A DNA stretch of 64,000 bases from contig CAZAOT010000001.1 of the NCBI GenBank assembly GCA_964487045.1, positions 70,745 to 134,744 on the forward strand. The letters run 5' to 3'. The position numbers and the translations under genes are program-made. The notes under the pieces are model-generated. The model did not search any database and had not been told where the DNA came from. It saw only the letters and a list, made by a program, of their open reading frames with translations. Shown here one piece after another: positions 1 through 59,844 of this stretch. Source of the stretch: an uncultured Candidatus Saccharibacteria bacterium (GTDB lineage Bacteria > Patescibacteriota > UBA1384 > DTJR01). The stretch's first letter is position 1; each line of letters starts with the position of its first letter.

Positions 1-1
1 C

Positions 2-43166: not shown

Positions 43167-44642
43167 ATGAGTTACACAAAAAAAGTTGCTTTTAGCACAG
43201 CATCCCAGTTTGTCGGTAAATTCGCTGGGATAGCGATCTCTCTGGTTACAATTGGAATTTTATTTAGATTTTTAGGAGTCGAGGGATCGGGAAAGTACAC
43301 TACTACATTTGCCTTTACCTCATTTTTCGCTTTATTTGCCGATATAGGGCTTGGCTGGACTCTGCTTCGAGAACTCTCAATCAAGCAGACGAAAGAAGAA
43401 AAGAGTAAGGTTTTTAAGAATATCTTTACCTTAAGAATCATCTTAGGTATTGCGGTCTATGCAATTGCTTCAGCTTTGGTCTGGGCTTTTAATTATCCGA
43501 CAGACGTAAAAATGGCAGTTGGAGTTTTGGCGATCGCTTGGTTTTTCCAGTCACTAACTTCGAGCGTTGTTCAGATCTACCTCAATACTTATCGAATGGA
43601 TATTGCCGTTATGGGAGAAGTGGTAGGCAAGGCGTTCATATTGCTCTTTGTCTATCTCGCCTCAACTTCAGGGGGCAACCTAATTTCGGTCATGTTCGCT
43701 TATTTAGTGGGATGTTTTGTAAATTTTGTGATCGTTTGGCTCTTAGCTGGTAGATTCATTCCCACCGGGCTGGCTTTCGACAAAACCTATTGGCGCTATG
43801 CCCTGCGTCAGGCTATTCCGATTGGGATTACTTTGGTCTTTGGCTATGTTTATTACAAAGTTGACTCCCTGATGCTCTCTCTTCTTAAAGGAATGACCGA
43901 TGTAGGAATTTATGGCGCCCCTTACAAATTACTTGAAGTATTGCAAATGTTTCCCGCGCTATTTTTGGGAGCTTCATTCTCGCTTATAACCAAATACGTG
44001 ACCGATAAAGATGAGCGTGTAAACTCAGCTTTTCAGAAACAATTTGATTTTCTTTCGACAATTGCCTGGCCAGTTGTGATTGGAACTTTCGTGCTGGCTC
44101 TGCCGATAATTAAATTTATAACGGGCTCGGATGGCCAATTTGTAGACGCTTCGACAGTTACCATCCTCGGACTGCCTATGACTTCGGTAATATGTCTTAA
44201 GATCTTAATTTTCTCAGTTGGTGTCAATTTCTTCAGTTCGCTTTATAATTTTATGATCGTATCACTCGGTAAGCAAAAACAAATGGTCTGGCCGACAATC
44301 GGTTTTGCGCTTTTTAATGTAGCTTTGAACTGGTTCTTAATTCCAAGATACAGCTATATTGGAGCATCGGCAGCGACACTTCTGACTGAGGGCATGGTTC
44401 TCCTGACGACCTACTTTATTGCCAAGAAAAATATTTTTCTGCCGCTTCAATTTAATAATTTTGTTAAAATTGCTCTTAGCGCCATTGCGATGGGAATTGC
44501 GACCCACTACACTTATCAGTTGACCGGAGGATTATTCTTAAGTATTGTTGCCGCGCTTGTCGTCTATGGAGTGTTGGCGCTTGCTCTTGGCATAGTCCCA
44601 CAGGAGTTATTAAATAAAGTATTTAAATTTAAAAAATCATGA
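43167..44642 (+). CDS. Polysaccharide biosynthesis flippase (Wzx-like, MOP superfamily)
   Basis: ~12-14 predicted TM helices over 491 aa, MOP-flippase-like organisation. First gene of the glycosyltransferase cluster. Confidence 0.75.
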   Translation: MSYTKKVAFSTASQFVGKFAGIAISLVTIGILFRFLGVEGSGKYTTTFAFTSFFALFADIGLGWTLLRELSIKQTKEEKSKVFKNIFTLRIILGIAVYAIASALVWAFNYPTDVKMAVGVLAIAWFFQSLTSSVVQIYLNTYRMDIAVMGEVVGKAFILLFVYLASTSGGNLISVMFAYLVGCFVNFVIVWLLAGRFIPTGLAFDKTYWRYALRQAIPIGITLVFGYVYYKVDSLMLSLLKGMTDVGIYGAPYKLLEVLQMFPALFLGASFSLITKYVTDKDERVNSAFQKQFDFLSTIAWPVVIGTFVLALPIIKFITGSDGQFVDASTVTILGLPMTSVICLKILIFSVGVNFFSSLYNFMIVSLGKQKQMVWPTIGFALFNVALNWFLIPRYSYIGASAATLLTEGMVLLTTYFIAKKNIFLPLQFNNFVKIALSAIAMGIATHYTYQLTGGLFLSIVAALVVYGVLALALGIVPQELLNKVFKFKKS

Positions 44643-45730
44643 AAGTAGCAATTGATATTCAAACGACTCTAGGCAAGCCAACTGGCTTTGGTTTCTACGT
44701 ATCCAATCTAGTGGAAGCTTTAAAGAAGAGGACTGATAAGGATTTGGAGCTGGAGCTTATCAGTCCAAACTATGACCGCGATTTCTCTACACCACAGAGA
44801 TTTTACTGGGACCAATTTACTTATCCAAAAATCGCTAGAGCCAAGAAAGTCGATATTTTGCACCAACCTTGCTTCTCGGCGCCGCTTTCTTTCAATAAAC
44901 CGGTGGTTGTAACCATCCACGACATCATCAGCCTACTTTTTCCCGAGACCATTCCGTTTGCCTCTAGAATGTTTTATTCCAAATGGATGCCTTTTTCCTA
45001 CCGGAAAGCTTCTAAAATTATCACAATCTCTCAGTCTACGAAGCGAGACATTGTAAGAGTTTTAGGAATTCCCGAGAGTAAAATTACGGTTATTCCGCTT
45101 GGCTTTGATAAAAAAATGGAGGAGCGTCAGAGCAAAAATAAGATCGAGGAAGTGAAGAAGAAATATCACCTACCTCAAAATTATCTTCTCCACATTGGTA
45201 CTCTAGAGCCGCGAAAAAACCTCGATTTCTTAATTGATGTTTTTGCTGAAGTAATTCAAAAGGATGATAAAAATGATCTTCATCTTGTGATCACTGGCAA
45301 GAAGGGCTGGTATTATGAGGGCTTGTTTGAAAAGGTTAAAAATTTGTCTTTAGAGAAGAGGGTTATCTTTACCGGATATATTGACGAGGAAGATAAGGCG
45401 GCCATCTATCAGGGTGCTCGAATATTTACTTTCCCGTCGATTTATGAGGGCTTTGGTTTGCCACCACTTGAGGCGATGGCCGCCGGAATTCCGGTAATTT
45501 CTTCTAATACATCATCGATGCCCGAGGTAATTGGTGACGCTGGAATTTTGATCTCGCCATATGATAAATCGGCTTGGGTGAAGGCAATTTGCGACGTTGA
45601 TTCAAGTGAAAAACTGCGATCCGAGATGATAAGGAAAAATCTTGACCAAGTTAAAAAATTTTCGTGGGATAAAACCGCAGAAAAAACAATCGAAATATAT
45701 ACAAAGGTGTTCAATGAGCAAAAAGCCTAA
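44639..45730 (+). CDS. Glycosyltransferase family 4 (GT-B fold)
   Basis: C-terminal EX7E region …[36 protein letters not shown]…. Confidence 0.85.
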
Positions 45731-46802
45731 AATTATATTCATTTCCGAATCTATCAGGCGAGACTCCCATGCTCCAATGAGATTTTTTAAAGAGCTTGAA
45801 GTTGTCCATCTCTATCTAAATGCTCCTTATGGCGATATGTCGCAAGATGACCTTGAAGGTGCAAGACAAGTGAAAATCGAAAATTTATTGCAAGAATTGA
45901 TCGCTGAGAAACCAGACATTATCCAAGGCGCTGAACCATTTGGCTCAAGGCTAAGTCTAAAGCTTGCGAATATTTGCCTTAAAGCTTGCCAAAAGACAGG
46001 AGCAAAACTGGTTGTGCCAATTCTAGAAAATCGGCCACTTAGCGAGAGATTTAATTTGGTTCAACGAGCAGTGCTTAGAGCTTTCTGTCCTGGCTATTTC
46101 AAATTTGCTAGTGCGGTGGTTGTCTTGAACAAAGGCGCGAAAGTCAATGTCAAAGCTTACGCCAAAAATGCCAAAATAATTGAAGGAATTGTTTGGGGGG
46201 TGTGGGGAGTTGATACAGATCTTTTCAAAAAAATTGCAGAAAAAGAGAAGAATAGTTTGATCTATGTGGGGCGCTTGGTAGAGGACAAGGGGCTAAAGTA
46301 TATGCTCGAGGGTTTTGCAAAATCTTGTGAAAAAATATCAGATTTAAAGCTTAGGCTGGCTGGACGAGGGGACTATGAAGAGCAGATGCGCAGTTTTATC
46401 AAAGAAAGAAATTTAGAGTCAAATGTGAAATTCTTAGGCTTAGTCAAAAATACCGAATTGCCAAAATATTTCTCAAAAGCGGAGCTTTGTATCTATCCTT
46501 CGATTACAATGAAGCGTTGGGAAGAACAGGTTGGCACGGTTAATTTTCAGGCAATGGCCTGTGAGACGCCAGTCGTGACGACTAAAAGTGGCGCAATTCC
46601 TGAATACATAAAGGACGGTGAGGGAGCATTTCTTGTCAAAGAAAAAAGTGCGGAAGCGATTAGCGTAGCAGTCTTAGATTATTTTTCAGATCGAAAGCGG
46701 ATGCTGGAGGTGCAGAAGCGAGCCAGAAATTTTGTGATGAGATATGATATAAGAAGCGAGATTGCCAAAGCGGAAAAATTATTACTTGAAATAATAAAGT
46801 GA
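45714..46802 (+). CDS. Glycosyltransferase family 4 (second paralog)
   Basis: …[18 protein letters not shown]…[20 protein letters not shown]… Start taken at MSKKPKIIF, preceded by AAGGTG; the track start is 45642. Confidence 0.75.
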
Positions 46803-48232
46803 AGAATAATATTGTTATTTTTTCGGTAAGTTTACTGGTCGCACTTGTGGTCGGTTTTTTGATGTCAAGTGTTGTCAAAGTCGGTGTGCCGCTGGCAATC
46901 GGTATTGGCGCAATAATATTTTTGATACCGCTTTTATTTCAAAATCCACAGCTCGGGCTTGGTCTAATAGCATTTTTCCTGCCATTTGAAAGAATCCCTT
47001 CGTTTGAGGTTGCCGGCGCATCAGTCAAAATAAATTATATTTTGATTGCAGTGGTGTTCTTTGTATATTTCTTGACGAAACTTGCCTCGGGGGAGTTGAA
47101 GATCCCGAAAGATCCTAGCAGATATATCGTGGCGCTCTTTATTGCCAGTTTAACTTTTTCATTTTCCCAGGCCCTAAATTTCGAGCGATCAATTATGGTC
47201 TTGTTGTTCATGATTTTGATGTTTGTAGTTTATCTAACGGTTACATTTATGGTTCAGGACAAAAAGGCACTCAGTTATGTTCTCTATGGCTTAGTTTATG
47301 GAGCAATTTTCTCAGCAGTTCTCGGGCTTTTCCAGTTTGCTGGAGACGCAGTTGGCTTGCCAACACAAATTACGCTTCTTAAAGAAGGTTATGACAAATC
47401 AACTTTCGGATTTGCCAGGGTTCAAGGAACAGCGATTGAGCCACTTTATTTCGCAAATTATATCTTTATTCCATTATTTTTAATGTTGGTTCTTTTAGTA
47501 CGTGGTCAAGCTGAGAAATTAATTAATAAAAACCTCGCTTATGCATTGGCGGTGGGGCTACTTCTAAATTTTGTTCTCACGGTTTCGCGCGGTGCATATC
47601 TCGGGCTCGCTGGGGCAGGTCTTGTTTTGATCATTAGCCAAGCGAAGCTGATCTTAAGAGCTAAAACTATTATTACGACCGTTATGATTGGCCTGATTGT
47701 GATCGTTGGGGCATATCTTGCGCTAGTTAAAAGTGAACCGCGAGCGATTGATGAATTTATCGGACACGTGATGGTCAATGACCGTGATGACGGTGAATCG
47801 GTTGTCTCGAGAGTAAGTGCGACCAAAGAAGCATTTATGATGTGGCAAGAGCATCCAATTTTCGGTGTTGGTCTTGGTAATTACGGTCCGCTAGTCCAGG
47901 GAGATACCAAGGATACTCCGGAGGGAGGATGGTTCATCGTCAACAATGAATATGTAGAATTGCTGGCTGAAAATGGCATTGTTGGTCTTGGGATGTTTGT
48001 AGGCCTTCTCGTGCTTGTTTTCCTGCGAGCCTTGGCAGCAATTCGCAAAACAACCGATCAATTTTTGAAATCCGTCATGATCTCATTGACTTTGGCTCTT
48101 TTGGCGGTTTTGATTCAATATGCGTCGTTTTCGACCATTTATATTTTCCACATTTGGTTCTTGATCGCGCTTGTAAGTAGCGTGAGCGCCATAATCTTAT
48201 CTAAAAATGAAAATCGACAAAATATTAATTAA
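46799..48232 (+). CDS. O-antigen ligase/polymerase-like membrane protein (Wzy_C domain)
   Basis: ~10 TM helices. Conserved LTVSRGAYLGLAGAGLVLI segment and a large external loop. GTG start overlapping the previous stop. Confidence 0.65.
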   Translation: MKNNIVIFSVSLLVALVVGFLMSSVVKVGVPLAIGIGAIIFLIPLLFQNPQLGLGLIAFFLPFERIPSFEVAGASVKINYILIAVVFFVYFLTKLASGELKIPKDPSRYIVALFIASLTFSFSQALNFERSIMVLLFMILMFVVYLTVTFMVQDKKALSYVLYGLVYGAIFSAVLGLFQFAGDAVGLPTQITLLKEGYDKSTFGFARVQGTAIEPLYFANYIFIPLFLMLVLLVRGQAEKLINKNLAYALAVGLLLNFVLTVSRGAYLGLAGAGLVLIISQAKLILRAKTIITTVMIGLIVIVGAYLALVKSEPRAIDEFIGHVMVNDRDDGESVVSRVSATKEAFMMWQEHPIFGVGLGNYGPLVQGDTKDTPEGGWFIVNNEYVELLAENGIVGLGMFVGLLVLVFLRALAAIRKTTDQFLKSVMISLTLALLAVLIQYASFSTIYIFHIWFLIALVSSVSAIILSKNENRQNIN

Positions 48233-49331
48233 GCTAATAATTCTTGCCCTTCCATTTTATTTTATCCGTTTTTCGATTGGGCCGATTCCTACAACTTTAT
48301 TTGAAGTTTTAGTATATGTTGTTTTCCTGATACTTCTTTTTGGCAAAAAAATTTCTTGGCCGAAAAATTCAAAAATTATTACTCCAGCTTTGATTTTTGT
48401 TGGCGCAGGCTTACTTGGTGCATTTGTTGATCCAAATTTAGCTGATGGGCTTGGGTTGTGGAAAGCTTTTTTCTTTGATGGCTTCTTGATTTTTCTGATG
48501 ATCGTGAGTTCAAGAGAAGAGGAGGATTATGCTCCAATATTATTTTATAGCGGAGTGTTAGTTTCTCTTCTGTGCTTACTTATTTTCTATGTTAGTGGTG
48601 GCACGACAGATGGAAGGATACTTGATCTGGATCGGCTAAGTCCAAATTATCTAGCTATGTTTTTGACTCCGCTTCTAGCAATTGGAATGTATGAGGTTTA
48701 TCGCAAGAGAACTTTGGCGAACATCATTGGCTCTTTCGTGATTGCTTTTGCGCTTGTGCTAACACAGTCGCGAGGGGCGCTTGTTGGCTTAGCGGGGGCG
48801 CTAATTGGAGCAATATATTTCTATCTCTCTAAGAGAAAAGTTTCTTATAAGAACTGGGCTTTGCTTGGAATGATTGTCGTTTTTATTGTCGGCGGATATT
48901 TAGTTTTTAAACCGGATTGGTCTGACCATGCTAGAAAGTCTACCAGTTCAAATATAAGGTATTATATCTGGACAACATCGCTTGAAGTAATTGGCAAGAG
49001 TCCTGTCCTTGGAGTTGGAATATCTAATTACCAGAATTATTTTTCTACGATGACATCAGATCGTGTTAATTACCCAGAATTTATTTCGCCACAAGCTTTG
49101 ACTGCCCATAACATCTATCTTCAATTTCTTGCGACAACTGGACTTGTCGGCTTGATAGCATTCATCTATCTTCTTATAAAGTCAAAATTTATTAGGAAAA
49201 ATGGTGCGATAGGACTAGCGATATTTGCACTTCTTGCCTATGGGCTTGTGGATACTCCGTTTTTTAGAAATGATTTAGCGGCATTATTCTGGATATTGAT
49301 CGCAATTACTAATATAAGAAGAGATGACTGA
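48207..49331 (+). CDS. O-antigen ligase/polymerase-like membrane protein (second Wzy_C paralog)
   Basis: LTQSRGALVGLAGALIGAIYF motif; polytopic. Confidence 0.6.
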   Translation: MKIDKILIKLIILALPFYFIRFSIGPIPTTLFEVLVYVVFLILLFGKKISWPKNSKIITPALIFVGAGLLGAFVDPNLADGLGLWKAFFFDGFLIFLMIVSSREEEDYAPILFYSGVLVSLLCLLIFYVSGGTTDGRILDLDRLSPNYLAMFLTPLLAIGMYEVYRKRTLANIIGSFVIAFALVLTQSRGALVGLAGALIGAIYFYLSKRKVSYKNWALLGMIVVFIVGGYLVFKPDWSDHARKSTSSNIRYYIWTTSLEVIGKSPVLGVGISNYQNYFSTMTSDRVNYPEFISPQALTAHNIYLQFLATTGLVGLIAFIYLLIKSKFIRKNGAIGLAIFALLAYGLVDTPFFRNDLAALFWILIAITNIRRDD

Positions 49332-50799
49332 GCGGGTGGAAAGCTTTGTAAAGAATAGAAAAAAACTATTTTTCTGCTTGATTTTCTTAGTTTCATTTAT
49401 TGTCACCTCGATTGGCATTAATCAGACGGGTGAGACCTGGGATGAAATACCTTATTACAATGCGGCCAAGCAATATGCCTCCAATATAAAACATTTCCGC
49501 ACTAAGGGTGAAGATTGGGCGGCCAATAAAGAACATCCTCCGGTAGCTAAATATGTCTACATGGTAGCATCTGCGTTTGAAATGCAAAAAGAAGGTGAGA
49601 ATTACACCGGAGGAAGATTGGCTAGTGCGGCAATGATTAGTCTTACAATTTCACTGACCTTTTTACTTACATTGGAATTGTTCGGGGCTTTAGCTGGGTT
49701 GCTCGCTGCTATTGTGCTCTTATTAACCCCACCTTTTATTGGATTTGGCCGAGTGCTTGGTATGGACTCGCCAACCGCCCTTGCAATCACGCTAATTGGA
49801 ATAAGTTTTTATAAATTTGCTAATTCTAAGGCGATGCCGAAAGACTATATCATTCCTGCGCTAGTTTTTTCACTTGGCATCGCTACGAGATACAATATAG
49901 TCCTTTCAGGCTTATTTTTGCCCGTTGCGGTTCTTCTTTTTTCTTCCTGGCGTTTTGAACTAAAGAAGTGGCTTAGCTTTTTTATATTTCCAATTGCGGC
50001 AGTACTGATTTTTTATTTAGTTTGGCCGTTTTTGTGGCAGGATCCTATCGGGGGAATTGACAAAAGCATCGGTCATTGGGGGCAGGTAAAAGAATGGTAC
50101 TTTGGGGTATCGAATGCTACATTGCCAAATTCTTATTTTCTATCGTATTTCTTTTATGTGACTCCAGCAGTAGTATTGATACTCTCTGCGCTGGGGCTGA
50201 TAATTAAACCTTGGAATAACAAAAAATTATATATTCTTGCTCTACTGCTTGTTCCTTTTATAAATAGCGTGGTGGGGATTAAGCAGGGCGGGGTGCGCTA
50301 TCTACTTTTTGTGTTCGTGCCTCTGGCAATTTTTTCTGGATTAGGCCTGAGCTTTTTAATTAAGAAAGTTAAATATTTATGGCTGCAAATCATCTTAATA
50401 CTCTCGTTAATCGTTTATATGTCTTTTGTAATGGTGAGCTACTATCCATACTATATTGATTACTATAATGAATTTATGGGTGGTGCAAAAGGCAACTATG
50501 AGAAAAAGGCTTTACAGCTAGGCTGGTGGGGAGAGGGGGGCAAGAGATCGGCAGATTATCTGAACAATAATGCTCCAATTGGGTCAACTATATTCAATAA
50601 TATGAAACCAGAACATACCCTTGATAATCTACGGGCTGATTTAGTAATGGTTAAATCAACTGAGAATCCAGATTACATTGTTTACAATACCCTCTGGGCG
50701 TGGGGAAGCGGATATGAGGTAAGCCCAGAATATACGATAGTTCACCAAGAAAAAGCAGCAGGTGCTCCTATAGTGACGGTTGCAAAGAAAATTAAATAA
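49324..50799 (+). CDS. GT-C fold glycosyltransferase, PMT/ArnT-like (family 39/83)
   Basis: First extracytoplasmic loop with acidic DE motif (GETWDEIPYYNAAKQY); ~11 TM. Confidence 0.65.
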   Translation: MTERVESFVKNRKKLFFCLIFLVSFIVTSIGINQTGETWDEIPYYNAAKQYASNIKHFRTKGEDWAANKEHPPVAKYVYMVASAFEMQKEGENYTGGRLASAAMISLTISLTFLLTLELFGALAGLLAAIVLLLTPPFIGFGRVLGMDSPTALAITLIGISFYKFANSKAMPKDYIIPALVFSLGIATRYNIVLSGLFLPVAVLLFSSWRFELKKWLSFFIFPIAAVLIFYLVWPFLWQDPIGGIDKSIGHWGQVKEWYFGVSNATLPNSYFLSYFFYVTPAVVLILSALGLIIKPWNNKKLYILALLLVPFINSVVGIKQGGVRYLLFVFVPLAIFSGLGLSFLIKKVKYLWLQIILILSLIVYMSFVMVSYYPYYIDYYNEFMGGAKGNYEKKALQLGWWGEGGKRSADYLNNNAPIGSTIFNNMKPEHTLDNLRADLVMVKSTENPDYIVYNTLWAWGSGYEVSPEYTIVHQEKAAGAPIVTVAKKIK

Positions 50800-50943
50800 G
50801 TTATCTGCTCGCTAGCGAAATCTAATAAATTCGATCTCTAGACGATTTTTTTCTTAAAGCGAGTTTTTCTAAACTTGCATTTTTTTGCAGCTTAAGCTTC
50901 AATCAAAATATATTATTACAGGTTTATTAATATTAATATTTTA

Positions 50944-53900
50944 ATGAATAAAAGCGCAAAAACTATTTCGATAATCTTTCCTGCTTACAACGAAGAAAAG
51001 AATATCAAAAAAACGGTAAACGAAGCTTATAAATTTGCTGAAAAAGCATTTAAAGATTTCGAAATTATTGTAGTTGATGACGGATCTGTAGATAATACAG
51101 CAACAATTGTCGAAGAAATTTCTAATACAAAAAAGAAAGTAAAACTTTTAAAAAATGGCAGAAATTTGGGATATGGCGCGACTGTTTGGAAGGGTTTGAA
51201 GGCAGCCAAGAAAAAACTAATTTTCTTCTCTGATGCTGATCGTCAATTTGATCTAAGAGAAATCGCAAGTATCTTAGAGCATGTGGGGGAGTACGATGTG
51301 GTGATCGGTTATAGACGCAAGCGAAAAGATCCTTTTCTAAGAAAACTGAATGCCTGGGGTTGGAAACTCTTGTTGCGCTTAGTTTTAAATTTAAAAGTAC
51401 GTGACATAGATTGCGCTTTTAAGTTATTTAGGCGTGATGTTGTAGAGAAAGTATCGGTTAAGTCGACTGGTGCGACATTCTCAGCTGAACTAATTTACAA
51501 CATCAAGAAAAAGGGCTTTAGAATTAAAGAAGTCGGCGTGGGCCACTATCCGCGAGTTGCAGGTAGCCCCACCGGTGCAAAGCTATCTGTGATCAAGAAG
51601 GCATTCGTCGAACTTTGGCGTTTTTATAGGCAGGATAAAGATCTAGTGAGGCAGAAGAGTCGATTCGTGTACTTTGGTGGCGCCATAATACTATTTTTAT
51701 CGAGAATATTACTGCGATCCAATTCTATGGATTTTTTTGACTCTAGTGAATATGCCTGGAGGACGAATGACGCTTCTTTTCTAGGCGCGCTAGCAACTGG
51801 GCATGCACCTTTTCATCCCCTGTATGTTTTCTTCAGCTGGTTGCTTCACAGTCTTCCATTTAAGCCAAGTGAAATTACTTCGCTGGAGATAACATCGGCT
51901 TTGATGGGAAGTCTATCGATCGTCTTCCTATTCTTATTTGTAAAAAAATTATTCAATTCTCGTGTTGCATGGTTGTCTGCAACTATTTTTAGTTTGCTGC
52001 CATTTGTCTGGGTAAGTCAAACAACAATTTTAGTGGATGCTTCTGAACACACTTTTTATTTCTTAAGTTTGTTTTTATGGTTAATAGCATTGCAAAGTCA
52101 GAATTTAAATGGAAAGATTTACGCTCTTTGCGCTGGTTTGTCATTTGGCTTGGCCGCATTTGCCCATACTCAGGTTGCTATCTGGATAGTAAGTATTTTA
52201 GCTATGCCAATACTAACTACAGAATTTAAACGTAAATCGCTCCTTGATCTACTTTACAAATTTTTATTATTCTTCTTGGGTGGTTCGTTCTTTATATACT
52301 TATATTTAGAGTTACTGCTTTATTCTCACTCAATCGGTTGGCACGAACCTAGCACTAGCTACAAAGCCGCTCTTAAGTATCTATTGTTTGGCAATATTGG
52401 AGATCGTGATCCGATTGAAATTAAAAAAACTATATACTATCTGGTTAGCCTTGCTTCAAGTGTTGTCGTTCTAACAGGTCTTTTTGGTGCTATCAAGATG
52501 TTTTTACAAGAGAAGCGAAAATTGTTGTTTGTGTTTTTATGGTTTATTCCTTTTGTTATTGGCTCGACATATATTTATGAAAATTTATATGCTAGGACGC
52601 TGATAATAGGTCTAGCAGCAATTGCAGTTTGTAGCGCTTATTTTTTACTTAATATAAAAAAATTCAAAAGTATTTGGATTGGTTTGGTCTTGGCGCAACT
52701 CATAATATTAAGCGTTCCCGTAGTGGCAAGATACCATAATTATCCATCTCCAATTGAAAATATAAAATCATTCATTTCCACCGTTGAGCCTGATGGGATA
52801 TTCATTTCATCAAATGTTACAAAGACGATGGCTAATTCTGCGTATAAAGGTGAATATGTAAATTTCGGAGATGTGGGATACGGTGCAGGTTTTGTACAGG
52901 ATAAGACCAAGCAGGCCCTAGCTGATGGCAAACCTGTTTTCGTTCTGTCTGACGCTTTGATTTCGCCATACAGAAGATATGATGGTTCTTATTACGACCT
53001 CAGGTCTGTTGGGACTGGCAACGGCTCTAGTCATGGCACTGAGCTAGAAAACTTATTTAAAAACTTTAATATCTATCTCAGGAAGGTAGAGAGCTATTCA
53101 TTTAGACGGGCACTATATCAGGTTAGTAATAATTTTGATGATGATGTTTTGAATAATATTGAGTCGGAGGCCAAAAAATCACCAATTGTTTTTGGCAGAC
53201 TAGTTTCTAATCAGGAGGCCGTATCTGGAGCGATTATTAATAATTATAATAAGAATTTGTGTGGCACAGTTAAAGAAAATATAACTCGTTTAGACTTTGG
53301 ACTATGTCTAATAAGAAATTTCAGAAAAGAACCAGAAAACTGGACCTTTACGGATAAAGATGGTCGGTTCTACTTGCCATCAGATAAACCAAGCATAAAT
53401 TTAGCGATTGGAACAAACCCGGGTCAGACCAGAGTATCTTCTTTGGATGGGCAGTTTGCCAAAGAAGAGGTTATCTATCCGCAGGCTAAATATCGAGCTG
53501 AATACACAAGCCTGGAGGAGCTCAAAAGTATAATTTCTGATATCGATAGGTCTTATTATGTTGTTTCTTACGAAAAGGACGGACAAATTCGTCTTAGGCT
53601 TTATACATACGAATTCAGTTTATCTAAGACAAACACAATCGATGCAAAAAATATAGTTGCTGAGGCCGGGAAGATAGTAAAGGATGGGGTCTTATCAAAG
53701 AAAGTTCGTGTTTCCGACGAGAGAGCAGGATATATGGCTTCTGGTCCATATATGGATTTGGCTGAAGGCAAGTATATTGCGGTTTTCAGCCTAAGAAAGA
53801 GTAGCCAAAGTAAAGGAGCAGTACTGCTTGATGTTTCAGGTGATTATGGGCGGATTGATCTTGGCAAAGTGGAGAAGAATATTAGCGAGCTGTCTAGTGA

Positions 53901-54024
53901 TAAATATAAAAAAATAGAACTGCCGTTTGTATTACAGGCGGGAACCGGAGGAGTTGAGTTTAGGGTTAAAGCAGAGCCTAATAGTGGAATTTATTTAGAA
54001 TCGATTGAGATAAAAAAGAACTAG
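50944..54024 (+). CDS. Fusion protein (1026 aa): N-terminal Dpm1-like GT2 (polyprenol-phosphate sugar synthase type) + polytopic GT-C/PMT-like membrane domain + ~450-aa C-terminal extracytoplasmic domain
   Basis: GT2 motifs IIFPAYNEEKNI, VVDDGSVDNT, FSDADRQFD; then >10 TM helices; then a hydrophilic C-terminus. Confidence 0.7.
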   Translation: MNKSAKTISIIFPAYNEEKNIKKTVNEAYKFAEKAFKDFEIIVVDDGSVDNTATIVEEISNTKKKVKLLKNGRNLGYGATVWKGLKAAKKKLIFFSDADRQFDLREIASILEHVGEYDVVIGYRRKRKDPFLRKLNAWGWKLLLRLVLNLKVRDIDCAFKLFRRDVVEKVSVKSTGATFSAELIYNIKKKGFRIKEVGVGHYPRVAGSPTGAKLSVIKKAFVELWRFYRQDKDLVRQKSRFVYFGGAIILFLSRILLRSNSMDFFDSSEYAWRTNDASFLGALATGHAPFHPLYVFFSWLLHSLPFKPSEITSLEITSALMGSLSIVFLFLFVKKLFNSRVAWLSATIFSLLPFVWVSQTTILVDASEHTFYFLSLFLWLIALQSQNLNGKIYALCAGLSFGLAAFAHTQVAIWIVSILAMPILTTEFKRKSLLDLLYKFLLFFLGGSFFIYLYLELLLYSHSIGWHEPSTSYKAALKYLLFGNIGDRDPIEIKKTIYYLVSLASSVVVLTGLFGAIKMFLQEKRKLLFVFLWFIPFVIGSTYIYENLYARTLIIGLAAIAVCSAYFLLNIKKFKSIWIGLVLAQLIILSVPVVARYHNYPSPIENIKSFISTVEPDGIFISSNVTKTMANSAYKGEYVNFGDVGYGAGFVQDKTKQALADGKPVFVLSDALISPYRRYDGSYYDLRSVGTGNGSSHGTELENLFKNFNIYLRKVESYSFRRALYQVSNNFDDDVLNNIESEAKKSPIVFGRLVSNQEAVSGAIINNYNKNLCGTVKENITRLDFGLCLIRNFRKEPENWTFTDKDGRFYLPSDKPSINLAIGTNPGQTRVSSLDGQFAKEEVIYPQAKYRAEYTSLEELKSIISDIDRSYYVVSYEKDGQIRLRLYTYEFSLSKTNTIDAKNIVAEAGKIVKDGVLSKKVRVSDERAGYMASGPYMDLAEGKYIAVFSLRKSSQSKGAVLLDVSGDYGRIDLGKVEKNISELSSDKYKKIELPFVLQAGTGGVEFRVKAEPNSGIYLESIEIKKN

Positions 54025-54025
54025 T

Positions 54026-55183
54026 TTATTGGTGCTCGGCAATAAATTTTTTATAAACTTCAAAAGCAGGTTTGTTTTTAGTTGCATTAACTTTTCCGGC
54101 TTTGTCAATTTCGGCACCAACTAACCCGAAGTGACTGTCGTTCTCGTTACCGATAATTTTATTAACCGGGTTGTCAAAGAGGGTATAAACAATTACTCCT
54201 TTAAAGTAGCCAGAAGAATATACATTCGTTAGGAAGCGGCTAAAAAATTCTGCTTGGTACTGTTCCCCTTGGCTCTCACTCATATTTTCACCCTTGCTTC
54301 CACCGCTCGCATTTGTTTCAACTAGCCAGACATCCTTTTTTATTGATTTTAGCTTTTCGGCTAGGTTCATATAGCTACCGTAATTATATTCACGACTAGT
54401 TGGGTCTGTCCCGTCGCTCGAATACCAGCTCCAGCCCAAGATATCGAAGTCAGCCCCATCAGCAATAAAGCGAGGAAAAATATCATATAGAATCCAATGT
54501 CCACTCAGGACAATCTTAGCGTTAGGATCGTTTTGTCTGATTCCTTTCGACATTCCCTTGATCCACTCGAGAGTTGTATTGTACATATCTTGAGAATAAT
54601 CAATTCCATTTTCTCCCTTGATAATTTCGCCGCTGGTGTCTGCTTTTTTGACGATTGTGCCACTTATCTCGTTTGCAATCTGGTAGTATTTGACCTTCCC
54701 CTTATAACGTTTTGATGCATAGGACCCCATCCTGTAGCCCTCTTCATAATAATCAGCCTTGCCAACCGTAGCAGGAATGTTGGGGTCTAATACAAGCAAA
54801 AGATCCAAACCAGAGCTAGATATACTATTAATAAATTGGTCATTATCACTTTCTAAATAATTAATTTTAAATGGCGAATCTATTTTTCCTATTTCTAGAT
54901 TAGCTCTAATTAAATTCAGGCCAAGCTCCTTGGCTTTAGCTATTTGTAGATCTGCATGCTCTTGAAAAAATCCCTCATTAAGATTGTTGAGGGTGTAGGC
55001 CCCTCCCTGTGCACCCCAGACAAATGATTTATTCAAATTGGCGACTGGAGAGGGAGACGGGGTTGGTGTTTGAGCAACTTTAGTTCGGTTCGTTGAAGCC
55101 TTAATTTTCAAAATATTTCCGGTGATTAAGCCGACTACTATTGCTAGGGCCAATATTAAAAAAGCATTGGTGTATTTTTGCAC
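54026..55183 (-). CDS. Secreted/anchored TIM-barrel glycoside hydrolase (GH5-like; family assignment tentative)
   Basis: N-terminal anchor. Motifs YQIANEISG and VWLVETNASGG (possible acid/base and nucleophile Glu). GTG start. Confidence 0.45.
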   Translation of the reverse strand: MQKYTNAFLILALAIVVGLITGNILKIKASTNRTKVAQTPTPSPSPVANLNKSFVWGAQGGAYTLNNLNEGFFQEHADLQIAKAKELGLNLIRANLEIGKIDSPFKINYLESDNDQFINSISSSGLDLLLVLDPNIPATVGKADYYEEGYRMGSYASKRYKGKVKYYQIANEISGTIVKKADTSGEIIKGENGIDYSQDMYNTTLEWIKGMSKGIRQNDPNAKIVLSGHWILYDIFPRFIADGADFDILGWSWYSSDGTDPTSREYNYGSYMNLAEKLKSIKKDVWLVETNASGGSKGENMSESQGEQYQAEFFSRFLTNVYSSGYFKGVIVYTLFDNPVNKIIGNENDSHFGLVGAEIDKAGKVNATKNKPAFEVYKKFIAEHQ

Positions 55184-55259
55184 TATTTATAAGATATCTT
55201 CTTTTTACCTTAGTCGCAAATTGTTTACTTTTAAGAAGAAAAATTGTACATTGAGAGCA

Positions 55260-56378
55260 ATGAAAGATGTTTTAATTGTCGTTCCAACCTTTAACGAAAA
55301 AGAGAATATCTCCAATCTTATTTTAGAAATTCGCAAAGCTAAAGTAGACGCGGATATTTTGGTTGTGGATGATAATTCTCCTGATGGAACTGGCAAAATC
55401 GTTGAAGATCTCAGAAAGAGCGATAAGGGTTTGTTTGTTTTGCACCGCAAGGAAAAAGCTGGCTTAGGTAAGGCCTATGTAGCTGGTTTTTCATGGGGAT
55501 TAGAACATGGCTATAAAAAACTAATTTCCATGGATGCTGATTTTTCGCATCCGGTTAGCTCGCTAAATTCACTTATTAACCTATGTTCGAAGAAATCTGT
55601 GGCAATTGGCTCGCGATATATAAAAGGCGGGAAAATTGTTGGCTGGAAGTGGAATCGATATGCAAATTCCTGGGGAGCAAACTATGTCACAAGGGCTCTC
55701 CTTAGGATAAAAGCCAAAGACTCTACCGCTGGCTTTAAGTGCTATCCAGCAGAATTTTTGCGTGAGGTAAATTTAGAAACGATCCAGGCGGCAGGCTATG
55801 CTTTTCAGGTAGAGATGCTTCTTCGGGCCCAGGAGCTTGGTTATAAATTACTCGAAACACCTATTACTTTCGTAGATCGAACTGCCGGAGAGAGCAAAAT
55901 CCAGGGAGAATTAAAGAAATCTGCTAAGACTGTTATGCAACTCGCGGTGTCCAAAAAGTCATATCGACAATTTGTGAAATTCGCCATTGTGGGGGCATCT
56001 TGCGCTCTGGTCGATTGGGCTGTTTTTTATCTAGTAAAATTAATATATAGCAATTATTTCTCATCTGTAGAGCTACAGATGGCAAGACAGATCGCTAAGG
56101 CAGTTTCTTTTATTTTTTCCGCTAGTGTGAATTATTACTTCAATCGTATTTGGACTTTTAAATCGAAGGATAAGGCTGTTGCTTCTCAGGCTACAAAGTT
56201 CTTTCTCGTCGCGTCGATTGGATTATTATTCAACTCAGTAATCTTCTACGCGGTAACTGCCAAACTAAATTGGCGAGATATTTTTGGCCTGATTATCGCT
56301 ACTGCGCTTGTAACTCTCTGGAATTTTTTCATCAATCGAATTTGGACTTTCAAGGAAGATGAAAAAATCAAATCTTAA
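55260..56378 (+). CDS. Dpm1/ArnC-like GT2 (polyprenol-monophosphate sugar synthase) fused to a C-terminal GtrA-like 4-TM domain
   Basis: VVPTFNEKENI, VVDDNSPDGT, MDADFSHP; C-terminus FVKFAIVGASCALVDWAVFYLV…YYFNRIWTFK (GtrA-like). Start at MKDVLIVVP; the track start is 55122. Confidence 0.8.
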   Translation: MKDVLIVVPTFNEKENISNLILEIRKAKVDADILVVDDNSPDGTGKIVEDLRKSDKGLFVLHRKEKAGLGKAYVAGFSWGLEHGYKKLISMDADFSHPVSSLNSLINLCSKKSVAIGSRYIKGGKIVGWKWNRYANSWGANYVTRALLRIKAKDSTAGFKCYPAEFLREVNLETIQAAGYAFQVEMLLRAQELGYKLLETPITFVDRTAGESKIQGELKKSAKTVMQLAVSKKSYRQFVKFAIVGASCALVDWAVFYLVKLIYSNYFSSVELQMARQIAKAVSFIFSASVNYYFNRIWTFKSKDKAVASQATKFFLVASIGLLFNSVIFYAVTAKLNWRDIFGLIIATALVTLWNFFINRIWTFKEDEKIKS

Positions 56379-57849
56379 ATGGTTGATTCTGATATTAGCT
56401 GGACTTATTACGAGATTTTTATTTTTAGGGATTAGGCCGCTTGAGGGAGACGAGGGGATTGTTCTTAAAATCGCCAGTAGCGCCGATTTAAAATCATTAT
56501 TTAATGCGGTTAGCCACGATGTTCATCCGCCCCTTTTTCATTTCTTGCAATTTATAACTCTCAAGCTTTGGCCACTTTCTGAGTATTCGGCGCGAGTGGT
56601 AAGTGCCATTGCAGGTTTTGTAGCAATATATTTTATTTATAAAGTTTTCGAGAAAATCAGCAATCAAAAAGTTGCTTTCTGGGTAGCGCTATTGTCAATT
56701 TTTAATCCAGTTCTAACTTATCATTTTGCCGAGGCCAGGCCGTACGGAGTGTTGGTAATGCTGATTTTTGCTCAATTATTTGTATTTTTGCAGTTAATTG
56801 AAAGTAAAAAGAAGCGACACTTGTTTGGGTTTTTCGCGTTATCCACACTGTTAGTTTTAACCCAATATATTTCATTTGTGTTTTTATTCGGAGAGCTAGC
56901 CTATTTGATTTTATTAAAACGAAAAATGATCACTTGGCAAAAAGTAGTAAGCGGACTTCTGGCTATTGCTATGTTTGGTGCTTTGTGGGGAAAGGTATTT
57001 ATCTCGCAGGTTCAAGGACGTTCCCTTGAGCAGTCACAGGCGCTCAACATCAAGGATAATTTAATAGGCGTTTTTAATGGAATCTATCGCTTCTTTGCTG
57101 GGAGATTATTTTTGGACCTCGATCCTTCAATCTCTAGAAATTTGAGTTTTGCCAAAGATAACCCAGTCTTGTTTATTGTTTTTATTCTTTCAATTGTCAT
57201 TCCATTAGGACTTTTGGTGTGGGGTATTATTGATCTTAAGAAGAGAAATAAAGACAATCTATATCTGTTGCTAATAATTTTTACCCCAAGCATTTTAGCA
57301 GCCTTGCTCTCTAGTGAAATTGGTCCTCGCGCAGTCAGATATTTACTCTTTTTGGTGCCGGTTTGTCTTTATATAATAGTAGAGCTGTATTTTTCTAAAA
57401 AGACGCTTGCTAAGAATATTGTGTTCTCTGCATTTATGGTGATATATCTTGGTGCATTTGTTTCAGGATTTTATTTTGAGAGAACTAAGCCGGGGGTTAA
57501 TGCAATCGCAACTTATTTGTTAAGAAACGCTGACCCTGGAGATAAGGTCGTCGTAAGAGGTGGCTTCGGCGGCGGGGAAAGATTTGTGCTCAAATATTAC
57601 TTGGGAGATGAGAGTGGAGTTGAAATATTTGATTTGTACGGCGATTACCAAGTGGGGAATTTAGATAAAATAAAATCAAGAGACTCTTTCAAATATATTA
57701 AAAATATTAAAGCTCTCGATAATAAAAAAAATGTTTGGTTTTATGATATGACTTATAATTTTGATGAAACTACTATTGTGGGGAATTTTGAAAAGTTTGG
57801 TCTTGGAAAAGATAAAGAAAACAAAGAGCTGATGCTCTATAAGTTCTAA
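56359..57849 (+). CDS. GT-C fold glycosyltransferase, PMT/ArnT-like (family 39/83)
   Basis: Loop-1 DE motif (GIRPLEGDEGIVLKIAS); ~11 TM. Overlaps the upstream Dpm1-like gene by 20 nt. Confidence 0.7.
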   Translation: MKKSNLKWLILILAGLITRFLFLGIRPLEGDEGIVLKIASSADLKSLFNAVSHDVHPPLFHFLQFITLKLWPLSEYSARVVSAIAGFVAIYFIYKVFEKISNQKVAFWVALLSIFNPVLTYHFAEARPYGVLVMLIFAQLFVFLQLIESKKKRHLFGFFALSTLLVLTQYISFVFLFGELAYLILLKRKMITWQKVVSGLLAIAMFGALWGKVFISQVQGRSLEQSQALNIKDNLIGVFNGIYRFFAGRLFLDLDPSISRNLSFAKDNPVLFIVFILSIVIPLGLLVWGIIDLKKRNKDNLYLLLIIFTPSILAALLSSEIGPRAVRYLLFLVPVCLYIIVELYFSKKTLAKNIVFSAFMVIYLGAFVSGFYFERTKPGVNAIATYLLRNADPGDKVVVRGGFGGGERFVLKYYLGDESGVEIFDLYGDYQVGNLDKIKSRDSFKYIKNIKALDNKKNVWFYDMTYNFDETTIVGNFEKFGLGKDKENKELMLYKF

Positions 57850-57856
57850 GCTAAAC

Positions 57857-57906
57857 TTGATCTCTACTCTTGCTGGTGCTATATTGTCCTGATCTGAATA
57901 TTCAGA
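57857..57906 (+). promoter_or_regulatory. Sigma70-like promoter TTGATC-17-TATATT (57857-57885) followed by the perfect 14-bp palindrome tctgaatattcaga (57893-57906) at the predicted transcription start
   Basis: Hexamers, spacing and palindrome read directly; candidate operator. Confidence 0.45.
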
Positions 57907-57927
57907 CGATCCTTGAGGAGGCAGGAA

Positions 57928-58608
57928 ATGCTTCAGACAGTCGTATCGGCGTCAGCGGGCTTAATGACTACCTACCACGTAGAACGTGCTGGGGTCATTA
58001 GTCTTGGATCACTCGGGAGAGGACTAGTTGTGGTCAGTCGCAACATCTTCTGCCGTTACCTCATATCTCCAGAAGGCGAGATGGGGTTCTTCGATCAGCA
58101 GTGTCTCGCAAGTTCGCGCATGAATAACACCCTTGTCGGCGGAAAGATTGACTTGGCTGCCTATATGGCAGGTGCCTTCAAGGGATTGTGCACTAACTGC
58201 ATCGAGGGAACGGCGAGTGTTGTATCGCGAGATTTTCTCGCCCAGGTACTGCCAACTCTCGACCTGTCTATTCTGAAGGTGGAGCGGTTCTCACTGGTGA
58301 TAACAACGCTTCAAAGTGCCGACAAGGCCTGCAGCTTCATGATGAGACGTCGTATCCAAGGCTTTCCGGAGTATTTGACCGGCGCCTACACTCTGCCTAC
58401 TGATCTGCTACACGAGGCAGGTAAGCTGTTCAGATCATCCTGGCTTCAGGGCAACCTGGATTCGATCGATGCTCTGGTCAGGTCAACTGGAGAGACGCCT
58501 CAGCTCAGAGGGGCAGGTTCAGCTGGTATACTTTCGAGTCCACTTCGCGCGAATTTGATGAAGTGGTTCAAGGGAATCACGTGTCACGAAGCTATCTCTC
58601 TAGAATGA
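57928..58608 (+). CDS. Hypothetical protein (226 aa) in a GC-rich island; orphan
   Basis: SD GAGGAGG 6 nt before the ATG at 57928; the track TTG start at 57913 is probably an over-extension. Codon usage richer in GC than neighbours. Confidence 0.45.
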   Translation: MLQTVVSASAGLMTTYHVERAGVISLGSLGRGLVVVSRNIFCRYLISPEGEMGFFDQQCLASSRMNNTLVGGKIDLAAYMAGAFKGLCTNCIEGTASVVSRDFLAQVLPTLDLSILKVERFSLVITTLQSADKACSFMMRRRIQGFPEYLTGAYTLPTDLLHEAGKLFRSSWLQGNLDSIDALVRSTGETPQLRGAGSAGILSSPLRANLMKWFKGITCHEAISLE

Positions 58609-58628
58609 GCGTCTTTTGCTTTATCTCT

Positions 58629-58658
58629 AGGCCGCTGCGCCATCTGACGCAGCGGCCT
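58629..58658 (+). terminator. Perfect 11-bp GC-rich hairpin aggccgctgcg-ccatctga-cgcagcggcct followed by a T-rich tract
   Basis: Arms verified as reverse complements; ttgtcttttt downstream. Confidence 0.6.
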
Positions 58659-58695
58659 ATTGTCTTTTTAGGAGTAAAAATGTATTTTTTAAGTA

Positions 58696-59844
58696 ATGGA
58701 AAACCAAAAAACAATTCTTTTTGACGGAAGATTTCTGGCTCTTTCTAATGCTGGCCTCGGCCGGTATTCTTCCGAGGTTTTAAAAAATATGCTTTCTCTT
58801 TCTGGCGATGACCTAAAGTTTATTATTTTAGTCATGCCAAAGACTAAATTTTCCGATGACCTGAAGGAAGCAATTTCCAAAAAAGAATCATTGGTTGAGG
58901 TTATCGAATTTGACGCTAAGCACTATTCATATAGAGAACAAACAGCGCTAAAAAAATTACTTGATGAAATCAAACCTGATTTGGTTCATTTCACCAATCT
59001 AAATCATCCGGTTTTTTATAAAGGTAAGTTTGTGGTTACTATTCATGACTTAACTCTGTTTGATTATGCCGAGCGTGCAAGCGCCTTTAAGAAGTTTGCT
59101 TATAGCTATGTGATTAAAAAAGCCGCTCAAAATTCACAAAAAATTCTTACTGTCAGCGAATTTGCGAAGCGCCAAATGGTCAAAAAATTTGCCATCAATG
59201 CTAGCAAGGTGGTGGTTACCTATAATGGTATTGATGATAAGTTCAAAAAAATTACCAACCCACGAACTCTTCTCCAGGGTGAAAAATATGGGCTAGATAA
59301 GCCGTACTATTTATATGTCGGTCAGTGGAGAAGCCATAAGAACCTACTTGTTTTGGTCCGCGCTTTTGCGCAGCTGATGCAAAAGGGACTTCAGGGAAAA
59401 GTAGAGCTGGTTTTTGCTGGTAAAATCGATAAGAAATATCCAGAGCTTACCAGTGAAGTAGAAAAATTAGGGCTAAAAAACGATGTTAAATTTACTGGCT
59501 TTGTAGAGGATGCAGATTTGCCGATAATTTATAATAATGCTCTCGCTTTTGTCTTTCCCTCGCTTTCCGAAGGATTTGGCTTACCGGCCCTAGAAGCTCA
59601 GGCTTGCGCAACGCCAGTTGTTTCCAGCGATAAGACTTCGCTTCCGGAGGTTTTAGGGGATGGCGCGGTTTACTTTAATGCGACAAGTGTATCTGATTTA
59701 ACCAAGAAGATGATCGATGTTCTTCAGGACGAAAAGCTTAGAAATAAGCTGATCGATGAGGGTCTCGAAAACGCGAAAAGGTTCACTTGGAAGCAAACAG
59801 CCCAGAAAACTCTTGAAGTTTACTCTGATTTATTGTATAAATAG
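58696..59844 (+). CDS. Glycosyltransferase family 4
   Basis: …FPSLSEGFGLPALEAQACATPVVSSDKTSLPEVLGD… (EX7E motif). Confidence 0.85.
   Translation: MENQKTILFDGRFLALSNAGLGRYSSEVLKNMLSLSGDDLKFIILVMPKTKFSDDLKEAISKKESLVEVIEFDAKHYSYREQTALKKLLDEIKPDLVHFTNLNHPVFYKGKFVVTIHDLTLFDYAERASAFKKFAYSYVIKKAAQNSQKILTVSEFAKRQMVKKFAINASKVVVTYNGIDDKFKKITNPRTLLQGEKYGLDKPYYLYVGQWRSHKNLLVLVRAFAQLMQKGLQGKVELVFAGKIDKKYPELTSEVEKLGLKNDVKFTGFVEDADLPIIYNNALAFVFPSLSEGFGLPALEAQACATPVVSSDKTSLPEVLGDGAVYFNATSVSDLTKKMIDVLQDEKLRNKLIDEGLENAKRFTWKQTAQKTLEVYSDLLYK

Follow-up and report, generated by a model that had tools for sequence, protein, structure and literature searches.

Organization of the locus

The 64,000-nt stretch of DNA analyzed in this study (referred to below as the window) spans positions 70,745 to 134,744 of contig CAZAOT010000001.1, which is assigned to an uncultured Candidatus Saccharibacteria bacterium. 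It contains a gene cluster of approximately 17 kb whose order is kept across related genomes (WS2- and Berkelbacteria-labelled relatives), and which encodes a covalent fusion of a family 2 glycosyltransferase (GT2) with a polytopic membrane glycosyltransferase of the GT-C type. The cluster probably represents a lineage-conserved pathway that would assemble and decorate a cell-surface glycan, with the fusion protein coupling the synthesis of a sugar donor to its transfer.

All 12 genes that a sequence-only reading of this DNA had listed within the interval were recovered at the same coordinates in the list of open reading frames (ORFs), and Pfam matches, each above the gathering score, confirmed the domains it had assigned to them (Table 1). 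Two genes inside the interval were absent from that list: a minus-strand gene for a hydrolase-like protein and an ORF located within a G+C-rich cassette. The right flank is formed by genes encoding an H+-pyrophosphatase (H+-PPase) and a VanW/PG_binding_4 protein (Pfam). In the comparisons given below, L001 is candidate division WS2 ADurb.Bin280, L002 is a metagenome-assembled genome (MAG) and L003 is Candidatus Berkelbacteria.

Table 1. Features of the glycan locus and of its surroundings (window coordinates)
Position	Strand	Feature	Evidence
43167-44642	+	MOP/Wzx-type flippase, 491 aa, polytopic	Pfam Polysacc_synt, E 2.3e-25; 51-54% identity in L001, L003
44639-45730	+	GT4 a, cytoplasmic glycosyltransferase, conserved core	Glycos_transf_1, E 1.4e-38; 64-66% identity in L001, L003
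45642-46802	+	GT4 b glycosyltransferase, some relatives only	Glycos_transf_1, E 2.8e-38; 55% identity in L003, absent from L001
46799-48232	+	Wzy_C protein 1, polytopic, polymerase- or ligase-like	Wzy_C, E 1e-18
48207-49331	+	Wzy_C protein 2	Wzy_C, E 1.1e-25
49324-50799	+	GT-C enzyme 1, PMT_2 type, 491 aa, accessory	PMT_2, 42.3 bits (cutoff 26.1)
50944-54024	+	GT2-GT-C fusion protein, 1026 aa	Glycos_transf_2, residues 9-170, E 3.8e-30; PMT_2, residues 292-445, 39.5 bits
54026-55183	-	Predicted membrane-anchored clan GH-A-like (beta/alpha)8 glycoside hydrolase	Weak GH53 and GH5 matches
55260-56378	+	GT2-GtrA protein, type-III-DPMS-like polyprenyl-phosphate sugar synthase with putative flippase domain	Glycos_transf_2; GtrA_DPMS_TM, E 9.6e-24
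56359-57849	+	GT-C enzyme 3, PMT_2 type, 496 aa, accessory	PMT_2, 48.2 bits
57857-58669	+	G+C-rich cassette	Composition; holds ORF 57928-58608
58696-59844	+	GT4 c glycosyltransferase, conserved core	Glycos_transf_1, E 9.5e-38; 51-66% identity in L001, L002
218-5998	+	Giant secreted-type protein, 1926 aa	NHL or Kelch beta-propeller repeats; C-terminal fn3 and Ig-like domains
6745-14109	+	Giant secreted-type protein, 2454 aa	NHL or Kelch beta-propeller repeats; C-terminal fn3 and Ig-like domains
14143-16054		MacB-type ABC transporter pair	
19809-20750	-	XerC/D-type tyrosine recombinase	
20843-21550	-	DedA/VTT-domain protein	
21480-22097	-	PAP2-family phosphatase	
22094-22675	-	PAP2-family phosphatase	
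24563-25162		Ser/Thr-rich anchored protein	31% Ser+Thr
27943-28743	+	Peptidase C39-like protein	
29748-29822	+	tRNA-Glu (CTC)	
30710-31978		Anchored protein	Ser/Thr/Pro-rich linker
32665-42999	-	Operon of large proteins	No Pfam matches
42325-42999		Anchored protein, 224 aa	Ser/Thr/Pro-rich linker

The proposal that this locus serves extracytoplasmic glycosylation from polyprenyl-phosphate sugars agrees with its combination of PMT_2-type GT-C enzymes and GT2 domains resembling ArnC, dolichyl-phosphate mannose synthase (DPMS) and GtrB. The two GT2 domains had been described as Dpm1-like; both were indeed closest to ArnC, DPMS, GtrB, PgfS and PpgS, and both keep the DXD motif in a DADxQ-type form.

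The designation of the three GT-C proteins as PMT/ArnT-like was upheld in part. All three matched PMT_2 above the cutoff and carry an acidic motif (DE or DxxD) in the first outer loop (GETWDE...HPP in enzyme 1 and LEGDEG...HPPLFH in enzyme 3), but none matched the true PMT/GT39 model PF02366 or the ArnT equivalog. Weak PF02366 matches were found for some homologues of the fusion elsewhere. A sequence search of the GT-C parts of all three proteins against solved structures gave nothing significant (ArnT 5ezm, E 1.8; the rest were chance matches). The three proteins could not be aligned with one another by BLAST, and a meaningful GT-C phylogeny against PMT, ArnT and AftA is therefore precluded.

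The fusion is a genuine protein

The possibility that the fusion is an assembly artefact, with two genes joined in the vicinity of positions 51600-51700, had been raised together with its original description. The region constitutes one uninterrupted ORF, and a search of 5.8 billion proteins revealed 24 further full-length homologues (1011-1055 aa; 37-68% identity, coverage of at least 98%) with the same Pfam architecture, originating from NCBI, JGI, ENA and Logan assemblies. Junction residues 205-263 were free of gaps in all 25 aligned sequences (the window protein plus the 24 homologues), and the AlphaFold2 model built on this alignment (pLDDT 86.9, pTM 0.80) is continuous and confident across the junction helices (residues 214-230 and 232-256). 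The fusion is therefore genuine, and an artefact of assembly or annotation can for all practical purposes be dismissed.

Domain structure and predicted topology of the fusion

The protein is composed of a GT2 domain (residues 1-230), a GT-C domain (residues 232-599) and an outer domain (residues 600-1026). Within the GT2 part, the motifs PAYNE, DDGSxD and D97-A-D99-x-Q101 are invariant in the 25-sequence alignment. Among solved structures, the closest in sequence are ArnC (E 6.5e-18) and Pyrococcus DPMS (E 1.6e-14); the alignments extend over approximately 200 residues, including DADxQ, and reach past the nucleotide-binding half. The best fold matches (Foldseek) were likewise ArnC (9asc, E 8e-12), DPMS (9ep0 and 5mlz, approximately 5e-11) and GtrB (9nyd, 8.8e-10), and the best NCBIfam models were ArnC, PgfS, AglJ and PpgS, all below their equivalog cutoffs. 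By its similarity at the level of both sequence and fold, the fused GT2 domain is a putative polyprenyl-phosphate sugar synthase.

The GT-C domain contains approximately 11 membrane helices in the model. In its first outer loop, all 25 sequences have D263-F-F-D266 and H287/P289/H291/P292, and Foldseek matched the domain to chains of the oligosaccharyltransferase complex from yeast (e.g. 8age_A, E 1.4e-7). The Lys/Arg clusters of the protein are located in loops predicted to face inward. The number of helices together with the position of these clusters suggests a topology in which the GT2 domain is cytoplasmic, while the catalytic loop of the GT-C and residues 600-1026 are outside the cell.

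No Pfam match was obtained for the last approximately 430 residues (scan at E <= 0.01). When this outer domain was modelled separately (pLDDT 85.1), its terminal 110-130 residues matched single-domain CBM6, CBM4 and BT0996-C modules, with target-normalised TM-scores of 0.66-0.72 and root-mean-square deviations of 3.2-3.6 A for the CBM6/CBM4 structures. The end of the protein thus looks like a carbohydrate-binding module (CBM), namely a CBM6/CBM4-like beta-sandwich. In a profile search of 1.84 billion cluster representatives, the outer domain in its entirety was limited to about 30 clusters (identity level of 50%), comprising approximately 9 fused forms of 1011-1055 aa and approximately 13 GT2-less forms of 683-835 aa.

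The terminal sandwich module taken separately (residues ~900-1026, window ~53640-54021) was present in 2727 cluster representatives, often as 2-13 tandem copies. Among eight of these proteins scanned with Pfam, two were DUF2079 polytopic membrane proteins, two gave weak CBM_4_9 matches, one had a Gly_transf_sug domain and one had Calx-beta domains.

Conservation of gene order and split forms of the fusion

The same gene order was identified on five other contigs (L001, L002, L003, L082 and the P0012 contig). It reads: Wzx, GT4, an optional second GT4, Wzy, Wzy, the fusion, the minus-strand hydrolase, GT2-GtrA, GT4, H+-PPase and VanW. L002 shows the right-hand half only, because the contig ends within the fusion gene, and L003 gave no match past GT2-GtrA. 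Apart from L002, where the left-hand half is not covered, Wzy_C protein 1 is conserved across the compared loci. GT-C enzymes 1 and 3 proved accessory in the comparison with L001-L003, enzyme 1 having no tblastn counterpart in any of these three. Since this order is kept even where the fusion proteins share only 38% identity, the locus probably makes a core component of the envelope.

Split and GT2-less versions of the fusion occur in relatives. In L003 (positions 9998-14241), the fusion gene is replaced by three genes, which encode a 234-aa GT2 lacking a transmembrane helix, a GT4, and a 792-aa protein composed of the GT-C and outer domain. The 792-aa protein begins exactly at the first membrane helix and bears the automatic NCBI name "glycosyltransferase family 39 protein". 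This arrangement is reminiscent of eukaryotic DPM1, which needs membrane partners.

Such forms bear on the question of whether the fusion has any mechanistic meaning. The GT2 domain might instead act on a cytoplasmic lipid-linked oligosaccharide, or serve a general donor pool, and be joined to the GT-C for anchoring or co-expression. Consistent with this, the GT2-less forms are about as common as the fused ones among cluster representatives, the separate GT2 of L003 is a distant relative, and the same GT2 subfamily is also found fused to unrelated C-terminal parts (e.g. GH5-like, ABC and oxidoreductase domains). However, it is ArnC/DPMS, and not soluble or processive GT2 enzymes, to which the entire fused domain can be aligned, the acceptor region after the DXD motif included; the length and sequence of the junction are conserved in the 25 homologues down to 37% identity; and complete synthase-GtrA-GT-C fusions exist, whose GT2 is 50% identical. 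We consider a fusion without mechanistic meaning unlikely, and prefer the coupling of donor synthesis to transfer.

GT2-GT-C fusions in other lineages

The fused GT2 subfamily (39-50% identity) is joined to GT-C domains in other lineages as well. The architectures identified were GT2-PMT (P0065 of Novipirellula, 815 aa), GT2-PMT_2 (P0075 of Paractinoplanes), GT2-GT87 (P0056), GT2-GtrA-PMT_2 (P0030 of Ktedonobacteria, 923 aa) and GtrA-GT2-PMT_2-YkcB_C (P0033 of Ktedonobacteria, 1151 aa). Fusions of the GT2-GT-C or GT2-GtrA-GT-C type therefore occur in at least three named groups (Pirellulales, Ktedonobacteria and relatives of Actinoplanes), and the closest GT2 relatives of the window domain (45-50% identity) lie within GT2-GtrA-PMT_2 proteins. 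The GT-C parts and C-terminal domains of these proteins (e.g. YkcB_C) showed no tblastn-level homology to those of the window fusion.

A full-text literature search of incomplete coverage, which included a review (PMC8035078), returned no description of a GT2-GT-C fusion. The earlier remark that such a fusion is unusual does not hold for its occurrence, given its recurrence in Novipirellula, Ktedonobacteria, Paractinoplanes and others. As far as these searches go, the window fusion is best described as uncharacterised rather than unique.

The GT2-GtrA synthase and its GT-C partner

The GT2-GtrA protein had been singled out in its pairing with the GT-C gene that follows it. Its domains are real, as judged by Pfam, but the architecture is already known: the protein matches the type-III DPMS of Pyrococcus furiosus (5mlz) from end to end (query residues 4-337; E 1.3e-36), and the alignment covers both the catalytic DAD and the GtrA-like four-helix domain. 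Like this enzyme (5mlz, 9ep0), it therefore combines a GT2 with four membrane helices.

The GtrA-like domain of DPMS has been proposed to act as a flippase for the enzyme's own product (PMC12992685). According to the same study from 2026, type-III DPMS in the strict sense is found only in archaea and is defined by a motif set consisting of the polar-pocket Asn248, Phe338 and Arg/Asn341. Unlike these enzymes, the window protein has its nearest relatives in bacterial MAGs labelled WS2 and Berkelbacteria, and Asp occupies the position of Asn248; the alignment stops before residues 338-341.

The GT2-GtrA protein is 59-75% identical in L001-L003. The start of the gene for GT-C enzyme 3 overlaps its end by 20 nt. 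The sole counterpart of this enzyme among L001-L003 was found in L002 (58% identity), and in L001 and L082 a different GT-C-like gene is located on the other side of the GT2-GtrA gene, which suggests that a separate GT-C regularly accompanies this synthase even without orthology of the GT-C.

The hydrolase partner

The hydrolase gene lies tail to tail with the fusion gene. Its product consists of an N-terminal transmembrane helix, which would serve as an anchor, a TPTPSPSP linker and a catalytic-like domain with weak matches to GH53 (E 1.8e-4) and to GH5 mannanase (E 0.015). N171-E172 and E289 are invariant among its relatives; an NE motif and a Glu further along form the catalytic pair of clan GH-A enzymes.

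The protein collection contained 23 relatives of this protein, all restricted to the lineage of the fusion. Seven of the 23 are located on contigs equal in size to fusion-bearing ones, and three pairings were confirmed (L003, the P0012 contig and the window).

Mannose is hinted at as the sugar handled by the locus by the GH5-mannanase match and the similarity to DPMS, but these matches are too weak for such a claim.

Comparison with known systems

A three-component mechanism, in which a GT2 makes a polyprenyl-phosphate monosaccharide, a GtrA-type or other flippase translocates it and a GT-C transfers the sugar to a surface polymer, is well established (PMC11194591, PMC8035078). As in GtrA/GtrB/GtrC, CsbB/GtcA/YfhO and GacI/GacK/GacL, all three functions appear to be encoded in the window, twice over, by GT2 synthase-like domains, a GtrA_DPMS_TM domain and GT-C proteins with an acidic outer-loop motif; a Wzx-type protein is present beside the GtrA-type flippase domain. 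In contrast to those systems, one synthase is here joined to the flippase-like domain and the other to a GT-C, and the fused GT-C continues outside the cell into a domain of 430 aa that ends in a CBM-like module. The NCBIfam equivalog cutoff for a named member was reached by no protein of the locus.

A GT2 that makes a polyprenyl-phosphate sugar and is paired with a transferase of the GT-C type is also found in ArnC/ArnT and Ppm1/Pmt. However, there are no ArnA, ArnB, ArnD, ArnE or ArnF genes in the window, the score with the ArnC model was 76 bits against a cutoff of 529, and the resemblance of the GT-C proteins to ArnT and to Pmt (GT39) did not extend to the searches described above (E 1.8 and no PF02366 match, respectively). 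Ppm1 of M. tuberculosis is itself fused, to an Lnt-like domain and not to its transferase.

A further likeness is to the mycobacterial Emb and AftD proteins, GT-C enzymes which use a polyprenyl-phosphate sugar donor and whose extracytoplasmic CBM-like domains hold the growing polysaccharide. The window fusion is likewise a GT-C enzyme with a CBM-like outer domain, but no sequence similarity to Emb/AftD was detected; these proteins have no fused GT2, and the mycobacterial donor synthase is separate and of another type.

The encoded system would accordingly work like the GtrABC and CsbB-GtcA-YfhO class, and its sequences place it outside the equivalog families of Pmt (GT39), ArnT and Gtr. It is set apart by the covalent link between synthase and GT-C, by the lineage-specific 430-aa outer domain and by the fixed partnership with a GH-A-like hydrolase.

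A model of glycan assembly and its alternatives

In the pathway that we favour, the cytoplasmic GT4 enzymes, the Wzx-type flippase and the two Wzy/ligase-like proteins would make or attach a carrier-linked glycan. At the outer face of the membrane, the GT-C enzymes would add sugars from polyprenyl-phosphate monosaccharides supplied by the two GT2 synthases, of which GT2-GtrA, as synthase plus putative flippase, would serve a separate GT-C. We infer that the fusion feeds its own GT-C: at the inner leaflet, its GT2 domain would use a nucleotide sugar to charge polyprenyl phosphate; the resulting lipid-linked sugar would be flipped, for which the GtrA-like domain encoded just beyond the hydrolase gene is the simplest candidate; and the GT-C would then pass the sugar to an acceptor. 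The acceptor would be held by the outer domain with its CBM-like end and would most likely be a polysaccharide chain, and the membrane-anchored GH-A-like hydrolase may trim, release or remodel the same polymer. The CBM-like module and the co-occurrence of the hydrolase lead us to favour such a glycan acceptor over Ser/Thr-rich proteins.

Several observations weigh against this model. Neither in the 64-kb window nor in the annotated flanks (the Pfam-annotated 10 kb around the fusion gene in L001, L082 and the P0012 contig) was a priming phosphoglycosyltransferase, a chain-length regulator or an LCP ligase found, so that its Wzx/Wzy half is incomplete; of the Wzx/Wzy-type polymer locus postulated earlier, the Polysacc_synt protein and the two Wzy_C proteins stand, but not these further components. 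Nucleotide-sugar synthesis genes are also lacking from the 64-kb window. The separate GT2 of L003 is only approximately 31% identical to the fused GT2 domain, with a GT4 gene between it and the GT-C gene, and it may not derive from a clean fission. Resemblance of the beta-sandwich to CBMs is of a general kind (Foldseek E 1e-4 to 1e-6), so that the module could bind protein. The fusion has no GtrA-like domain, and flipping in trans is an assumption of the model; moreover, all functional statements are based on homology and predicted structure.

With respect to flipping, the fusion could also be a self-contained machine, which makes the donor inside, brings it across the membrane by way of the helices of its GT-C domain with no need of a GtrA-type flippase, and uses it outside, where the growing glycan would be held by its CBM-like domain. 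We consider this quite improbable. If it were true, this natural synthase-transferase fusion would offer a direct handle on the way in which lipid-linked monosaccharides cross membranes; for Dol-P-Man and Dol-P-Glc in eukaryotes this is, to our knowledge, still an open question.

The nature of the acceptor leaves room for protein O-glycosylation, in which the GT-C enzymes and/or a PglL-like Wzy_C protein would use polyprenyl-phosphate donors to modify the Ser/Thr/Pro-rich linkers of anchored surface proteins, on the model of Ppm1/Pmt in Actinobacteria or of GtrB/PgtC2 and PgfS/PgfM in streptococci. The Wzy_C family takes in PglL-type O-oligosaccharyltransferases; polymerases, ligases and O-oligosaccharyltransferases are not distinguishable by profiles, and the best weak NCBIfam matches of Wzy_C protein 2 included both RfaL (E 3e-9, below the cutoff) and O-glycosylation ligase models. 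Anchored proteins rich in Ser/Thr(Pro) are frequent in the window, and the three named earlier as plausible acceptors are real by composition (Table 1). One of them, the 224-aa linker protein, is encoded beside the Wzx gene, and L001 and L003 retain its C-terminal domain at this place; the hydrolase-like protein itself bears a TPTPSPSP linker. In streptococci, GtrB together with a GT-C enzyme glycosylates Ser/Thr-rich linkers of this kind (PMC12041528).

On the other hand, the window GT-C proteins match only PMT_2, and the fusion, which is the conserved GT-C, ends in a CBM-like module and is accompanied by a hydrolase of the glycoside type. We regard protein O-glycosylation as a possible, though doubtful, main function of the locus. 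It is compatible with the glycan pathway, in that proteins could be the targets of the accessory GT-C enzymes 1 and 3.

The missing priming enzyme would also be in keeping with assembly of a lipoglycan, comparable to mycobacterial lipomannan/lipoarabinomannan. In such a pathway the GT4 enzymes would glycosylate a primer, a membrane lipid, on the cytoplasmic side, the Wzx-like protein would flip it and the GT-C enzymes, with donors from the two polyprenyl-phosphate sugar synthases, would elongate and branch it outside, with the CBM-bearing fusion in an Emb/AftD-like role and the hydrolase releasing or trimming the product. The mycobacterial pathway uses enzymes of the PimA/PimB, Ppm1 and PimE/Mpt/Emb classes, with which the three GT4 enzymes, two polyprenyl-phosphate sugar synthases and three GT-C enzymes of the locus correspond; a CBM-like outer domain on a GT-C enzyme is a typical feature of Emb and AftD, which elongate polymers; and GT4 c gave weak NCBIfam matches, short of the cutoffs, to the glycolipid-anchor synthases IagA/BgsA (E 5e-16) and MGlcDAG synthase (E 2.4e-9). 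However, the GT4 matches are non-specific, a priming enzyme could be encoded elsewhere, as WecA often is, and two Wzy_C proteins with a MOP-family flippase are hallmarks of undecaprenyl-diphosphate repeat-unit pathways. A lipoglycan is, in our opinion, rather unlikely to be the product, and we retain the carrier-linked surface glycan described above.

The G+C-rich cassette

The cassette between the genes for GT-C enzyme 3 and GT4 c has a G+C content of 52-53%, compared with 28-40% in its flanks. It contains a promoter-like site, the -10 element of which is of the extended type, the ribosome-binding site GAGGAGG, an ORF of 226 codons (third-position G+C of 0.56 vs approximately 0.35 in neighbouring genes) and, at positions 58628-58659, the strongest intrinsic terminator of the region. 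The ORF matched only itself among the 5.8 billion proteins and gave no Pfam, NCBIfam or Rfam match.

A structured RNA, which was also considered, is the less likely reading: there was no Rfam match for the cassette, and the RNA fold z-score was only -2.5 for the plus strand and -0.65 for the minus strand. The strong ribosome-binding site, the 226-codon ORF and the terminator make a protein gene without relatives the more probable reading. In the same slot, L002 carries a non-homologous G+C-rich island and the P0012 contig a 241-aa gene without a Pfam match, while L001 and L082 have nothing; the cassette may thus mark a variable cassette site or a fast-evolving gene.

Surroundings of the locus

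The operon of large proteins on the minus strand is divergent from the Wzx gene. A protein of 1044 aa encoded by it weakly matched TrbL/VirB6, and the operon is partly conserved beside the glycan locus in L001 (positions 1-4676) and L003 (positions 1200-3330), the conserved parts being a 988-aa protein and the C-terminal domain of the 224-aa linker protein. It may encode a secretion or surface apparatus, which could supply acceptor or partner proteins.

The DedA/VTT-domain protein and the two PAP2-family phosphatases, encoded 20 kb from the locus, are candidates for recycling or translocating the polyprenyl-phosphate carrier. The remaining part of the window encodes two giant secreted-type proteins, followed by the MacB-type transporter pair, as well as a tyrosine recombinase, a peptidase C39-like protein and the only tRNA of the window (Table 1); these last three show no obvious tie to the glycan locus.

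Implications

Envelope building in these uncultivated bacteria, which are represented by MAGs only, is almost unknown. The synthase, flippase and transferase functions are found in differing covalent combinations: synthase with flippase-like domain and synthase with transferase in the window, and all three together in other phyla. These combinations provide evidence of the Rosetta-stone type that the three functions work as a physical unit. The terminal sandwich module, for which Pfam lacks a separate model, is also borne by DUF2079 membrane proteins and could be a marker for numerous further membrane enzymes that act on glycans, and the fusions represent single-polypeptide constructs for structural and biochemical study of the hand-over of donors across the membrane.

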